Part shown: positions 25,169-31,596 of the stretch, one piece after another | Layout: each line of letters starts with the position of its first letter | Position numbering within the stretch: position 1 is the first letter of the stretch | Made by a program: the position numbers and the translations under genes | Notes under the pieces: model-generated | What the model was told of the DNA's origin: nothing | Databases searched by the model: none | What the model saw: the letters and a program-made list of their open reading frames with translations, nothing else | Origin: Escherichia coli | GTDB taxonomy: Bacteria > Pseudomonadota > Gammaproteobacteria > Enterobacterales > Enterobacteriaceae | DNA length: 64,000 bases | Assembly: GCF_030384885.1 (NCBI RefSeq) | Contig: NZ_CP128613.1 | Direction: 5' to 3' (one strand)

Positions 25169-26581
25169 ATGTCACTCAGTCGGCGTCAGTTCATTCAGGC
25201 ATCGGGGATTGCACTTTGTGCAGGCGCTGTTCCCCTGAAGGCCAGCGCAGCCGGGCAACAGCAACCGCTACCCGTTCCGCCGCTGCTTGAATCTCGCCGT
25301 GGGCAACCGCTGTTTATGACTGTACAACGTGCGCACTGGTCATTTACGCCAGGAACGCGCGCATCGGTCTGGGGAATCAATGGTCGTTACCTGGGGCCGA
25401 CTATCCGCGTCTGGAAGGGCGATGATGTTAAGCTGATCTACAGTAACCGCCTGACAGAAAATGTCTCAATGACGGTGTCTGGTTTACAGGTGCCTGGCCC
25501 GCTGATGGGCGGTCCGGCACGGATGATGTCGCCAAACGCTGACTGGGCACCCGTATTACCCATTCGCCAGAACGCAGCGACATTGTGGTATCACGCTAAT
25601 ACCCCCAATCGCACGGCTCAGCAGGTCTATAATGGCCTTGCCGGAATGTGGCTGGTGGAAGATGAAGTCAGCAAGTCGCTGCCTATCCCCAACCATTATG
25701 GTGTGGATGATTTTCCGGTCATTATCCAGGATAAACGGCTGGATAACTTTGGTACGCCAGAATACAACGAACCGGGAAGCGGCGGCTTTGTTGGAGATAC
25801 GCTGCTGGTCAACGGTGTACAAAGCCCGTACGTTGAAGTCTCGCGTGGCTGGGTGCGCTTGCGACTGCTGAACGCGTCGAACTCTCGTCGCTATCAACTG
25901 CAGATGAGCGATGGTCGCCCGTTACATGTGATTTCTGGCGATCAGGGATTCTTGCCTGCTCCTGTATCGGTGAAGCAACTTTCGCTGGCACCGGGCGAGC
26001 GCCGCGAGATTCTGGTGGATATGAGCAACGGTGATGAAGTGTCGATCACCTGTGGCGAAGCGGCGAGCATTGTTGATCGTATTCGTGGCTTCTTTGAGCC
26101 ATCCAGCATTCTGGTTTCTACGCTGGTGCTCACGTTGCGCCCTACCGGGCTACTGCCGCTGGTTACTGACAGCCTGCCGATGCGCCTGCTGCCAACTGAA
26201 ATTATGGCCGGTTCGCCGATTCGCAGTCGCGATATCAGTCTGGGTGATGACCCGGGTATCAATGGGCAGCTGTGGGACGTCAACCGTATTGATGTCACCG
26301 CGCAGCAAGGAACGTGGGAACGCTGGACGGTACGCGCGGACGAGCCGCAAGCGTTCCATATTGAAGGCGTGATGTTCCAGATCCGTAACGTGAATGGCGC
26401 GATGCCGTTCCCGGAAGACAGAGGCTGGAAAGATACCGTTTGGGTTGACGGACAAGTGGAGCTGCTTGTTTATTTCGGTCAGCCTTCCTGGGCGCACTTT
26501 CCGTTCTACTTCAACAGTCAGACGCTGGAAATGGCGGACCGTGGCTCGATTGGGCAACTGTTGGTCAATCCGGTACCGTAA
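25169..26581 (+). CDS. ftsP: Cell division protein FtsP (SufI), multicopper-oxidase fold, Tat-exported
   Basis: 470 aa; twin-arginine signal SRRQFIQASGIALCAGA. Confidence 0.95.
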   Translation: MSLSRRQFIQASGIALCAGAVPLKASAAGQQQPLPVPPLLESRRGQPLFMTVQRAHWSFTPGTRASVWGINGRYLGPTIRVWKGDDVKLIYSNRLTENVSMTVSGLQVPGPLMGGPARMMSPNADWAPVLPIRQNAATLWYHANTPNRTAQQVYNGLAGMWLVEDEVSKSLPIPNHYGVDDFPVIIQDKRLDNFGTPEYNEPGSGGFVGDTLLVNGVQSPYVEVSRGWVRLRLLNASNSRRYQLQMSDGRPLHVISGDQGFLPAPVSVKQLSLAPGERREILVDMSNGDEVSITCGEAASIVDRIRGFFEPSSILVSTLVLTLRPTGLLPLVTDSLPMRLLPTEIMAGSPIRSRDISLGDDPGINGQLWDVNRIDVTAQQGTWERWTVRADEPQAFHIEGVMFQIRNVNGAMPFPEDRGWKDTVWVDGQVELLVYFGQPSWAHFPFYFNSQTLEMADRGSIGQLLVNPVP

Positions 26582-26631
26582 TGGACCAATTCAATGCCCC
26601 ACAGAGTGGTGGGGCGATACAAGGATGAATC

Positions 26632-28056
26632 ATGGATGGCATGGGATGGATGATTATTTTGGTACTTCCCTTTCTTTGGATGGGCTATGGACTGGCGTTG
26701 TTAATCATAACGGGGTGCGCTTTTGAATCTAAGAGGATTCGTCGCGTTCTGCTATGGGGTGTTGCGCCCCAGTTTATTATTCTTTGTATTACGACCTTAT
26801 TGCTTTATTGGATTAACTCTCGGTTAATTTATGTTTTTGTCTTTTTTCAGCCGGTTTTATGCATCACTACGGCAATTTTTTTGTTTGCTGGTAAAAAAAC
26901 ACAATATTCCAGATTGCTGTTTACTCTGTCTCATGTGATTTTTCTCGCTGGAGTTTTATATCAGGGGCATAGGGAAAATCTGCAACACATAATTAATAGC
27001 GACTGGAAGGAATATAAAATAACGCGTTTATTTGAGCAAGTGCAGGACAATGGAGCGCATGCGCTGAATAACGATGTAACTTGTTCAGAATTAATGCAAC
27101 TACTCACCCTGGCAGCGGAACGTGATGACGTCAAAGAAGAGACGTTACGTACTCTTATTGCAAAGAGAGTATCGCCATTTCTGACAATGTCAGATAACTG
27201 TACGGGTGAGGATTCAGTAGAGATTTATTCTGTAGATACTACACCTTTTATGGCGGCTATTCAGAATCATAATATACATTCTGTTCGTTTTTTTAGTCAA
27301 TTGCTTATGGGAAACTCACCAAAAGCAAAAAATAATCGTGACATTGTGCGCCGGGCAAACCCTTTGATCGAAGTGTATAAATATAGTCATGGTTCAAAAA
27401 AACAACGTAACTCAGGGTTAGAAATAAGTAAGCAATTAATCGCTATTATGCCAGAACTATTAACAGATGCCGTCTGGCGTGCCGTGCTCAATGTATATGA
27501 TGCCGATGCAGCACGATGGTTCTGGCGTAAGCAACCACCAGAAAATCGGTTGTATCGCTTAAAGGCTATGGCATTAATACCACAAACAGATGCGCTGTTG
27601 GCAGAGATTCGACATACTCCAGAGGTACTGAATATCTCGTCTGAGGGGGACCTGAATGAAGAGGAGTTTCTCCATTTCTTAATTTATGGAGGAGATACCG
27701 CTGTAATACATGCACTGGTTGAAAAAGGAATAGTTAACTGGCAGCACCTTATGAACATTGAGGGGTTTGATAAGGACCCCTTAATATGGTCTATTTCAAA
27801 ACTGGGAGAAAACGACAATGACCGGGAGGTTTTGGCATTAATTATTCATGATATTAATGCGCAAAACGCACTGCCGGAGGAACGCATTGCCAAATATTTA
27901 ACGTGGACGGGAGCAATGGGCGAGATTTTTTTAAAGGCGGGCGTACATTGTGATAAGTTATATGCGGCAATTGAGTCCGACAAAAAGCGAAATAATGGCA
28001 TGTATAGTCAAAACGCCAGGGAAGAAGTGGATCGCGTATGTACGCCCACAAAATAG
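26632..28056 (+). CDS. Accessory membrane-anchored ankyrin-repeat protein (about 4 N-terminal TM helices plus a roughly 370-aa soluble domain); function unknown
   Basis: 474-aa ORF; RBS aagga 6 nt upstream of the ATG. Hydrophobic segments at roughly residues 6-30, 39-62, 65-86 and 95-110. C-terminal ankyrin-like repeats (EFLHFLIYGGDTAVIHALVEKGIVNWQ; DPLIWSISKLGEN...VLALIIHDINAQNA). Markedly AT-rich by eye. Not part of the K-12 ftsP-ygiQ junction as I recall it. Confidence 0.75.
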   Translation: MDGMGWMIILVLPFLWMGYGLALLIITGCAFESKRIRRVLLWGVAPQFIILCITTLLLYWINSRLIYVFVFFQPVLCITTAIFLFAGKKTQYSRLLFTLSHVIFLAGVLYQGHRENLQHIINSDWKEYKITRLFEQVQDNGAHALNNDVTCSELMQLLTLAAERDDVKEETLRTLIAKRVSPFLTMSDNCTGEDSVEIYSVDTTPFMAAIQNHNIHSVRFFSQLLMGNSPKAKNNRDIVRRANPLIEVYKYSHGSKKQRNSGLEISKQLIAIMPELLTDAVWRAVLNVYDADAARWFWRKQPPENRLYRLKAMALIPQTDALLAEIRHTPEVLNISSEGDLNEEEFLHFLIYGGDTAVIHALVEKGIVNWQHLMNIEGFDKDPLIWSISKLGENDNDREVLALIIHDINAQNALPEERIAKYLTWTGAMGEIFLKAGVHCDKLYAAIESDKKRNNGMYSQNAREEVDRVCTPTK

Positions 28057-28185
28057 GAGCAGTTTGGGGCGGTTAAGGGATAAAAAATAAATGCCTTTCG
28101 CTATCTGTCAGGGCGAATCTCACCATTTGCTATACCTTCCATTGGCGATGAACAGTATTCTACCCGCACTTTTTTTACGATTGCG

Positions 28186-28992
28186 TTGAAGCATTACAAC
28201 GCCCGCGCCATCCGCGCGTTTAGCCGCTTTCTGCAAGGAAATTCCTCAAAAGCGCAGGAATATCGCGCGATTGTTCATCAAAAAAATCCACTGCAGCAGA
28301 TGTACCGGGGAATAAGTTTGCCAATTCGTTTTAGTGAAGAAGAGATCGCCCGCCACATTGTTGCCGCTCGCGAGATAAGCCTCACCTTGCTGCCCCTGAT
28401 GCCAGAATTATTAAACGAAGAGGCGTATGCAAATGTCATTGATGCTAATGACAGCGCAACGCTGAAGGCTTTTTGGCAGATCCAGCTGCCGCCCACGCCG
28501 GTTTTACGCCTGGAAGCGATGTCGGTAATTCCCATGACAGCGGCACTGGTTCAACAGGTGAGGGAGTCACCAAAGCGGCTTGAACTGGAAGATAAAAGTG
28601 GCAGGACAGTACTAACTTACATCGTGCGCTTTGGGAATATTGCCGCAGTACAGGCACTGATTGACGCTAATCTGATCGACTGGCAACGGCTCCGCCAATC
28701 GACAGGAAGGTCAACACCATTATTACTGGCGATCTGGCGACAAAAATACGACGATGATTATGTAATCTTCCCATTGATTTTAAAGGACATGCTGGCAAAA
28801 AATGCGCCACCCTCAGCAGAGGAAATAATGAACTGCATTAAGGATGGTATGACCGCAGATGATTTTTTATCTGCCGGAATGAGCAACACGCAATTCTGTT
28901 CTGCGATTGAACAAAGCCTCCAGGCGAAAACGTCAGTATTACCGGCGAATCGATTACGCCATCTGCAATCCTCGCGGTGTGCAAAGCTGTAA
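28186..28992 (+). CDS. 5'-truncated paralog of the preceding ankyrin-repeat protein (soluble domain only); may be a gene remnant or pseudogene
   Basis: 268-aa ORF starting at a TTG with no obvious RBS. Aligns along its whole length to residues about 205-460 of the upstream protein (RAFSRFLQGNSSKAQ vs RFFSQLLMGNSPKAK; VLRLEAMSVIPMTAALVQQVRESPK vs RLYRLKAMALIPQTDALLAEIRHTPE; GRTVLTYIVRFGNIAAVQALIDANLIDWQ vs EEFLHFLIYGGDTAVIHALVEKGIVNWQ). In-frame homology continues upstream of the TTG back to a stop at about 28081. Confidence 0.55.
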   Translation: MKHYNARAIRAFSRFLQGNSSKAQEYRAIVHQKNPLQQMYRGISLPIRFSEEEIARHIVAAREISLTLLPLMPELLNEEAYANVIDANDSATLKAFWQIQLPPTPVLRLEAMSVIPMTAALVQQVRESPKRLELEDKSGRTVLTYIVRFGNIAAVQALIDANLIDWQRLRQSTGRSTPLLLAIWRQKYDDDYVIFPLILKDMLAKNAPPSAEEIMNCIKDGMTADDFLSAGMSNTQFCSAIEQSLQAKTSVLPANRLRHLQSSRCAKL

Positions 28993-29107
28993 CCAACCGG
29001 AAGTTAAGTCATCCGCTGAAAACATCGCATTAACTTTTCGATTTCTCTTTCGTTCCGGCTTATAATCCCCGGCCTTTGATTATTTTTTTATCATTTCTGG
29101 AAGCAAA

Positions 29108-31327
29108 ATGAGCTCTATCTCCCTGATCCAACCGGATCGCGACCTGTTCTCCTGGCCGCAGTACTGGGCCGCCTGTTTTGGACCGGCACCGTTTTTGCCG
29201 ATGTCTCGTGAAGAGATGGATCAACTTGGCTGGGATAGCTGCGACATCATTTTGGTTACTGGCGACGCGTATGTCGATCACCCAAGCTTCGGGATGGCGA
29301 TTTGCGGTCGTATGCTTGAAGCGCAGGGCTTTCGCGTCGGGATCATCGCCCAGCCAGACTGGAGCAGCAAAGACGATTTCATGCGTCTGGGTAAACCGAA
29401 TCTGTTTTTCGGTGTTACTGCTGGCAACATGGACTCGATGATCAACCGCTATACCGCCGATCGCCGTTTACGTCATGACGATGCCTACACACCGGATAAC
29501 GTCGCGGGTAAGCGCCCGGATCGCGCCACCCTGGTTTATACCCAACGCTGTAAAGAGGCGTGGAAAGATGTGCCGGTGATCCTCGGCGGTATTGAGGCTA
29601 GTTTGCGTCGTACCGCGCATTATGATTACTGGTCTGATACCGTGCGCCGTTCCGTGCTGGTGGATTCCAAAGCCGACATGCTGATGTTCGGTAACGGTGA
29701 GCGTCCGCTGGTGGAAGTGGCGCATCGTCTGGCGATGGGTGAGCCGATTAGTGAAATCCGCGATGTGCGTAATACCGCGATTATCGTAAAAGAGGCGTTG
29801 CCAGGCTGGAGCGGTGTGGATTCCACCCGTCTTGATACTCCTGGGAAAATCGACCCGATCCCGCATCCGTATGGTGAAGATTTGCCGTGCGCGGATAACA
29901 AACCGGTGGCCCCGAAAAAGCAGGAAGCGAAAGCCGTAACCGTGCAGCCACCGCGCCCGAAACCGTGGGAAAAAACTTACGTATTGCTGCCTTCTTTCGA
30001 GAAAGTGAAGGGCGATAAAGTGCTGTACGCTCATGCTTCGCGTATTCTGCACCATGAAACCAACCCAGGCTGCGCGCGTGCGCTGATGCAAAAACATGGC
30101 GACCGCTATGTATGGATCAACCCGCCTGCCATCCCGCTTTCTACCGAAGAGATGGACAGCGTCTTTGCGCTGCCGTACAAGCGCGTGCCGCATCCGGCTT
30201 ACGGTAATGCCCGAATTCCGGCTTACGAAATGATCCGTTTCTCGGTCAACATTATGCGCGGCTGCTTTGGCGGCTGCTCTTTCTGCTCTATTACCGAGCA
30301 TGAAGGTCGCATTATTCAGAGCCGTTCGGAAGATTCGATCATCAACGAGATTGAAGCGATCCGCGACACCGTGCCAGGCTTTACGGGCGTGATTTCCGAT
30401 CTCGGTGGGCCAACTGCCAACATGTATATGTTGCGCTGCAAATCGCCGCGCGCCGAGCAGACTTGCCGCCGTTTATCGTGCGTTTACCCGGATATTTGTC
30501 CTCATATGGACACTAACCACGAACCGACGATCAACCTCTATCGCCGCGCGCGTGATCTGAAAGGCATTAAAAAGATCCTCATCGCTTCCGGCGTGCGTTA
30601 TGACATCGCCGTGGAAGATCCGCGCTATATCAAAGAGCTGGCGACCCATCACGTTGGCGGTTATCTGAAGATTGCCCCGGAACATACCGAAGAAGGGCCG
30701 TTATCGAAGATGATGAAGCCGGGCATGGGCAGCTATGACCGCTTTAAAGAGCTGTTCGATACTTACTCGAAACAGGCAGGTAAAGAGCAATATCTGATCC
30801 CGTATTTCATCTCCGCACACCCCGGTACGCGTGATGAAGATATGGTGAATCTGGCGCTGTGGCTGAAAAAGCATCGCTTCCGTCTCGACCAGGTACAGAA
30901 CTTCTACCCGTCGCCGTTGGCTAACTCCACCACCATGTATTACACCGGGAAAAACCCGCTGGCGAAGATTGGTTACAAGAGTGAAGACGTCTTCGTACCG
31001 AAGGGCGACAAACAGCGTCGTTTGCATAAAGCGTTGTTGCGTTACCACGATCCGGCAAACTGGCCGTTAATCCGTCAGGCGCTGGAAGCGATGGGTAAAA
31101 AGCATCTGATTGGCAGCCGTCGTGATTGCTTAGTGCCTGCGCCAACCATTGAAGAGATGCGCGAAGCCCGCCGTCAGAACCGCAATACCCGTCCGGCGTT
31201 GACTAAACATACGCCGATGGCGACCCAGCGTCAGACACCTGCTACGGCAAAAAAAGCGTCGTCTACGCCATCTCGCCCGGTGAATGCTGGCGCGAAGAAA
31301 CGCCCTAAAGCGGTGGCAGGTCGTTAA
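29108..31327 (+). CDS. ygiQ: Radical SAM protein YgiQ (UPF0313 family)
   Basis: 739 aa; Cys motif CFGGCSFCS; basic, Pro/Ala-rich C-terminal tail. Confidence 0.93.
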
Positions 31328-31365: not shown

Positions 31366-31596
31366 TTATAACCTTGGTTTATAAGGACTGTTACGAACGT
31401 CTAAGCGGTAATGCGCTCTTGCTGTTTCGTCTTTAACTTGCTGAATTTCCGGACGCAGGGCGTCAATATCCTGTTGCAGTTGATTAATTTTGTTATTCAA
31501 TGCCTGAATATCATGTTCCAGGTGTTCAATTTTGGCATTGCTGGTACAGCCAGCAAGACACAGCGCCAGCGGAATGGATAAGATAAGTTTGTTCAT
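31366..31596 (-). CDS. Lpp-family small outer-membrane lipoprotein paralog (about 76 aa)
   Basis: Internal Met of ORF 31366..31647 gives MNKLILSIPLALCLAGC (lipobox) followed by a coiled-coil region resembling Lpp and YqhH (AKIEHLEHDIQALNNKINQLQQDIDALRPEIQQVKDE). Confidence 0.7.
   Translation of the reverse strand: MNKLILSIPLALCLAGCTSNAKIEHLEHDIQALNNKINQLQQDIDALRPEIQQVKDETARAHYRLDVRNSPYKPRL

Follow-up and report, generated by a model that had tools for sequence, protein, structure and literature searches.

The second open reading frame (ORF) of a two-gene island lying between ftsP and ygiQ in the analysed Escherichia coli DNA (the window, i.e. the whole stretch of 64,000 nucleotides) is the remnant of a gene, designated here as gene 2, whose 5' part was removed by a single 519-bp deletion at a microhomology. 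The deletion is young and common in its lineage, and what it has left behind is most likely a non-functional remnant, or young pseudogene, of the textbook sort in a rare accessory island and of small biological weight. In RefSeq the remnant is listed like any ordinary protein, under the name "ankyrin repeat domain-containing protein" (224 aa), and the intact 469-aa copies of gene 2 found elsewhere are under-called at 268 or 370 aa. The family that forms the background to this case (four transmembrane helices and a probably periplasmic ankyrin-like domain, encoded beside ftsP) is uncharacterised and mildly intriguing. The gene order in the window is parC, plsC, ftsP, gene 1 (26632-28056), the ORF at 28186-28992, ygiQ, an Lpp-like gene, yqhH and yqhG, and the features of the island that are referred to below are as follows.

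26583..29035, + strand: two-gene accessory island of 2.45 kb, from the ftsP stop codon to the shared ygiQ upstream region, delimited by alignment with the K-12 spacer
26632..28056, + strand: gene 1, intact, 474 aa, AAGGA followed by an ATG start, GC content 41%, four N-terminal transmembrane (TM) helices and an ankyrin-like helical repeat domain
28057..28091, + strand: spacer between gene 1 and gene 2 as kept in the window, up to the deletion junction, collinear with the intact alleles L002, L016, L004 and L011
28084..28992, + strand: remnant of gene 2, codons 170-469 and the stop, with no start at its 5' end, ankyrin-like domain only
28089..28091, + strand: junction of the 519-bp deletion, AAA common to both breakpoints (3-bp microhomology), located from the blastn blocks

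Gene 2 and the 519-bp deletion

The ORF at 28186..28992 (+ strand, 268 aa, TTG start) directly follows the 474-aa ORF of gene 1, and the frame to which it belongs is open for 302 codons from 28084, right after an in-frame TAA (28081-28083) that lies within the spacer and ends 27 nt past the gene 1 stop, close to the distance of about 25 nt given in an earlier sequence-only reading of this DNA. When the 302-aa translation is compared with gene 1 by BLASTP, gene 1 residues 176-461 align with remnant residues 8-289 over 294 columns (30% identity, 52% positives, E=7e-38), and the homology between the two genes is also seen by tblastn (E=1e-33). This pairwise comparison bears out the whole-length similarity at about one-third identity that had been estimated by eye, and, as the alignment starts at remnant residue 8, the homology does continue in frame upstream of the TTG at 28186, where it includes DEQYSTRTFFTIAL against VEIYSVDTTPFMAAI. 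The remnant also matches the family profile at positions 174-471 (hmmsearch), and its identity to the corresponding part (residues 170-469) of the full 469-aa protein from strain GF4-3 is 96.7%.

The same reading had suggested that the second ORF is a gene copy which lost its N-terminal TM region and start, and had proposed that a full-length version be sought in other genomes. Such a gene is found, and at the same position. An intact 469-aa gene 2 is present between gene 1 and ygiQ in GF4-3, LD91-1, the loci L010-L012 and L016, and in E. whittamii, and intact tandem pairs of the two genes are seen in the E. coli loci L002, L004, L011, L012 and L016 and in E. whittamii (L023). In most of the 10 genomes that carry the longer form of the island, gene 2 is intact, with 469 aa, AAGGA, ATG and four TM helices; in GF4-3 (WP_250880415.1) its AAGGA stands 8 nt before the ATG, and the start lies 46 nt after the gene 1 stop. 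The intact alleles (e.g. GF4-3, L016 and E. whittamii) share their position and flanks with the window, from which they differ in that the window is without 519 bp. Compared with the GF4-3 allele the window is collinear, with a single gap of 519 bp and otherwise no rearrangement, and the blastn blocks against L002 (window 26290-28091 to L002 1-1802, and window 28089-29400 to L002 2319-3630) place both breakpoints at the common AAA. The deletion sets in within the spacer, 35 nt past the gene 1 stop and 10 nt upstream of the gene 2 ATG, and gone with it are AAGGA as the ribosome-binding site, the start codon ATG and the first 169 codons, which specify all four TM helices and the start of the linker; N170 is the first residue kept.

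The same deletion is present in the independent assemblies L003 (MFDS1022581) and three drafts (L013-L015). The exact 268-aa ORF occurs on 337 contigs, the 224-aa version called by PGAP on 228 and a 230-aa variant, which has an accession from strain M863 among its own, on 83. Because the identical junction recurs in assemblies made independently, complete as well as draft, and hundreds of contigs carry it, it is not an artefact of assembly. That the second ORF reflects an assembly or sequencing error, or is a chance ORF, is for this reason, and in view of the homology at E=7e-38, so improbable as to be negligible, and no support for an artefact or a chance ORF was found.

A further proposal of the sequence-only reading was that an AT-rich allele (gene 1) came in and displaced the 5' part of a resident and older gene (gene 2), which would have been truncated by insertion or by recombination. 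Some of the observations do speak in favour of this proposal. Gene 1 is the more AT-rich of the two (GC 41.1% as against 48.1% in the remnant, near the 50% that had been judged from the letters), with a GC3 of 0.38 compared to 0.48-0.50 in gene 2 (0.50 in the remnant), 0.53 in plsC and about 0.60-0.62 in parC, ftsP and ygiQ. Gene 2 also proves to be the older resident, as had been supposed, in that Escherichia sp. MOD1-EC7003 (76% identity) and Superficieibacter electus (50%) have its ortholog, and no gene 1, in the ftsP-ygiQ interval, and that E. albertii (69-70% identity) has the ortholog, again by itself, directly after ftsP. Since gene 2 occurs alone at this locus, gene 1 is either a later addition or a lineage-specific survivor. 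However, if the entry of gene 1 had truncated gene 2, intact pairs should not be seen, whereas they are present in both E. coli and E. whittamii. The E. coli pairs show the 3' end of gene 1 and the spacer as in the window up to the breakpoint, and the window differs from them by the internal 519-bp gap alone, the left end of which lies in the spacer. With gene 1, its stop and the 35-nt spacer collinear in truncated and intact alleles, the displacement is refuted, and we assign it hardly any probability; the arrival of gene 1 and the truncation of gene 2 are separate events.

The supposition that the two copies did not arise by recent tandem duplication is upheld. The alignment of gene 1 with intact gene 2 takes in the membrane domain and runs the full length of both (residues 15-456, 26% identity, E=2e-40), and E. 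whittamii already has the paralogs, which are 26-30% identical, side by side and intact. Both consist of four TM helices and an ankyrin-like domain, and share conserved NPL and MPELL motifs as well as a C-terminal cysteine pair. Gene 1 differs from the remnant of gene 2 in being intact and more AT-rich, and the identity between the two is only 26-30%. Based on these results, the ancestral island contained a tandem of old paralogs, gene 1 of 474 aa and gene 2 of 469 aa, both coding for a membrane anchor of four helices and, after it, a domain of ankyrin-like helical repeats. One deletion between two sites with only AAA in common has then cut the 5' part of gene 2 in the lineage of the clade I strain 2013C-4282 and its relatives, and the remnant at 28084-28992 is still open because the deletion is young.

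Gene 2 has suffered other lesions in other lineages. A +1 frameshift allele, seen also in EC2641, where IS1 lies just upstream, gives a 333-aa product found on 101 contigs, and a separate C-terminal frameshift is present in L025. In L010, it is gene 1 that is disrupted, beside an intact gene 2. These lesions, together with the loss of the whole island in most E. coli, fit with the island being a dispensable accessory locus. In EC2641 (L005 1813-2510) the element between gene 1 and gene 2 is IS1B, and the end of gene 1 is slightly altered (478 aa).

The intact 469-aa genes in L004 (1807-3216) and in L010, L011 and L012 (2398-3807), which have a ribosome-binding site and an ATG, are nonetheless called as proteins of 370 aa (PGAP, LD91-1) or 268 aa. 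These calls in L004 and L010-L012 were considered as independent truncations and rejected, as translation of the DNA shows the genes to be intact; the under-calling may stem from truncated protein models already present in the databases.

Coding status of the remnant

Between the TAA at 28081-28083 and position 28186 there is no in-frame ATG, GTG or TTG. Downstream of this point, three candidate starts merit consideration, for each of which the pairing energy with the anti-Shine-Dalgarno sequence (dG) is given.

28186..28188, + strand: TTG, first in-frame NTG, matching codon 202 in intact gene 2, without Shine-Dalgarno, dG +0.3 kcal/mol
28300..28302, + strand: first ATG in the frame, matching M240 in the intact protein, without Shine-Dalgarno, dG +1.6 kcal/mol
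28318..28320, + strand: internal TTG (L246) with GGGGA 6 nt ahead, dG -5.7 kcal/mol, the start used by PGAP

The earlier statement that the second ORF has no ATG or ribosome-binding site is therefore correct in part: there is no ATG at the 5' end of the frame and no Shine-Dalgarno at 28186 or 28300, but in-frame ATGs do occur at 28300 and 28399. The ATG at 28300 is used as the start in some pipelines, which yields the 230-aa calls, and the PGAP CDS from the TTG at 28318 is 224 aa in length (WP_227456947.1). The value at 28318 is in the range of the real starts of gene 1, ftsP, plsC and parC (about -5.2 to -6.3 kcal/mol). However, a value of -5 or better is reached by about 14% of the NTG triplets that the region contains, and the GGGGA at 28318 is thus at chance level.

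Several observations speak for the possibility that the remnant is translated from one of these internal starts (TTG 28318 or ATG 28300) and kept as a soluble ankyrin-like protein acting with or against gene 1. The frame is open in all five of the deletion alleles sampled, the allele is frequent (hundreds of contigs), an SD-like sequence precedes 28318, and the 224-aa product from this start would span model helices 252-466, the best ankyrin-like part of the protein, which includes the strongest ankyrin signal (Ank_2, residues 329-387). Further, gene 1 lies immediately upstream, and because no terminator-like site is present between it and the remnant, the remnant is probably transcribed together with gene 1. 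A scan of the region for promoters and terminators gave nothing above the expectation from shuffled sequences.

However, the open frame should not be interpreted as an indication of selection. The alleles of the deletion clade differ by only 1 synonymous and 2-3 non-synonymous changes, too few for dN/dS to have power, and with only 3-4 substitutions since the deletion an open frame is uninformative. No relaxation of constraint is visible in the pN/pS, at 0.43 for the window and the intact allele closest to it and at 0.23-0.48 between intact alleles; this does not favour a pseudogene, but the few differences leave this comparison, too, with no power. It also speaks against a retained fragment that gene 2 is frameshifted in other lineages and that fragments of all kinds are common in the family, that a random NTG would so often score as well as the one at 28318, and that a leaderless product would lie across the membrane from the domain of gene 1, which is predicted to be periplasmic and has a conserved cysteine pair. 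With this domain predicted to be periplasmic and the membrane anchor absent, any product of the remnant is predicted to stay in the cytoplasm, where it would be mislocalised, and translation itself would be poor or would not take place at all. A soluble antagonist or partner of the full-length protein, as had been suggested, is hence unlikely on the features of the sequence, and a translated and retained fragment has in our estimate perhaps a minor chance of being correct.

A more elaborate form of this possibility treats the family with four TM helices and an ankyrin-like domain as a two-component envelope system with separable functional domains, in which the remnant would be an uncoupled soluble module, made from the TTG at 28318, that modulates gene 1. 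It draws on the retention of the family at ftsP-ygiQ across Enterobacteriaceae, on its fast evolution, and on the recurrence of tandem paralogs and single-domain ORFs; we consider it quite improbable. The reading of the remnant as a young pseudogene is the one that is followed here.

Gene 1 and gene 2 are in the same reading frame in all alleles. In E. whittamii, gene 1 (L023 4001-5452) encodes 483 aa; the codon that matches the TAG at 28054 is not a stop in this species, and the gene ends at the TAA equivalent to window 28081-28083. A fusion of gene 1 and the remnant by readthrough was considered for the window and rejected, as it would require passing both the TAG at 28054 and the TAA at 28081.

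The protein family and its predicted topology

The protein encoded by gene 1 (WP_000348903.1) is annotated as 'hypothetical protein' or 'membrane protein', and an identical protein is found on 539 contigs. Word-indexed searches for homologs recovered no more than 4-9 clusters each, with none of the distant relatives among them, and an exhaustive profile search was needed for their detection. Carried out on 1.84 billion representatives, it recovered about 20 full-length clusters of the family and many fragments, and the remaining hits were to multi-repeat ankyrin proteins, which match at profile positions of about 320-390 with at most 30 matched stretches per protein. A search for related loci based on closer alignment returned three species only, and Foldseek against AFDB identified members in Salmonella, Phytobacter and Klebsiella, none of which is characterised and many of which are not full-length. 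The distant members are likewise encoded immediately downstream of ftsP, and ftsP and ygiQ are the neighbours at every locus examined. The family is restricted to Enterobacteriaceae, uncharacterised, and always adjoins the cell-division gene ftsP.

The relationship of this family to ankyrin proteins is seen at the profile level with bona fide ankyrin proteins, and the predicted ankyrin-like domain is a solenoid of stacked helix-turn-helix repeats. In Pfam, the i-Evalue of Ank_2 is 0.0015 for intact gene 2 (residues 329-387) and 1.7 for gene 1, and neither protein has a match at E<=0.001; in the PDB, KANK2 is matched with E=0.009. In comparison to the Ank clan (structures of AnkB/ankyrin-1, espin and KANK2), the repeats are highly degenerate and are fused to a four-TM anchor. 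NCBIfam and PADLOC returned no meaningful match for gene 1, for intact gene 2 or for the remnant, and no sign of a known defence system.

In an examination of 23 family members, the K+R content per sequence was 2.6 in loop 1 and 2.1 in loop 3 of the membrane domain, both of which have almost no D/E, whereas loop 2 and the N-terminus are acidic. The C-terminal tail has two conserved cysteines, present in 14 of 19 and in 18 of 18 sequences. From the positive-inside charge pattern and the conserved cysteine pair, the family is predicted to be N-out/C-out, with the ankyrin-like domain facing the periplasm. A bacterial precedent for such a location is the AnkB protein of P. aeruginosa, described as ankyrin-like and periplasmic, and as required for the KatB catalase to be fully active (Howell et al. 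2000, as cited in PMC7567364). The likeness to AnkB, in which the ankyrin-like domain is exposed to the periplasm as predicted here, is an analogy of location only and does not extend to the genetic context: the AnkB gene adjoins a catalase gene, whereas the neighbours of the island are ftsP and ygiQ, with no catalase gene at the loci examined.

Stand-alone ORFs that match only the four-TM N-terminal domain (profile positions ~1-137) are also encountered, viz. L006 5402-5839, L007 7400-7792, and L021 209-1165 and 2647-3042. The loci, which are E. albertii-like, from Superficieibacter or metagenomic, also have full-length members next to these ORFs, and one of the L021 ORFs has two domains. The ORFs may be either remnants or small membrane proteins with a function.

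Distribution of the island at the ftsP-ygiQ locus

The window matches the chromosome of its source strain, 2013C-4282, at 100% identity. This stx1-positive isolate was placed in Escherichia cryptic clade I by a population study (PMC10100065). The parC-plsC-ftsP region of the window shows at most 96.9% identity to every other complete E. coli genome, which is consistent with this placement. The island is carried by 13 of the 5426 complete E. coli genomes, 3 of them with the 2511-bp form seen in the window and 10 with a form about 519 bp longer; most E. coli have lost the whole island, and in E. coli K-12 the site consists of a hairpin-containing stretch of 37 bp.

In its deletion allele (window 26290-29400 compared with L003, MFDS1022581), the island of the clade I strain shows 99.7% identity to that of two E. 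coli isolates from Korea. This high identity, although the adjoining parC-ftsP region reaches at most 96.9%, suggests that homologous recombination has carried the island region from one lineage to another.

What lies between ftsP and ygiQ is variable, the spacer being occupied by the short hairpin sequence in K-12, by the ankyrin-like island in the 13 genomes noted above and by other cargo elsewhere. In other strains, including L009, a gene for a GntR-family regulator and genes for Ldh-, alcohol- and mannitol-type dehydrogenases lie directly upstream of ygiQ, and in the E. albertii-like locus L006 those dehydrogenase genes and a TRAP transporter (DctPQM) are present directly downstream of the gene 2 ortholog. 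A gene for an Lpp-like lipoprotein of 76 aa (31369-31596, - strand, lipobox LAGC) is located between ygiQ and yqhH, 2.4 kb from the gene 2 remnant. The encoded protein shows 44% identity to the adjoining YqhH (E=8e-18), and the stretch containing this rare tandem paralog is found in only 18 of the 5426 complete E. coli genomes.
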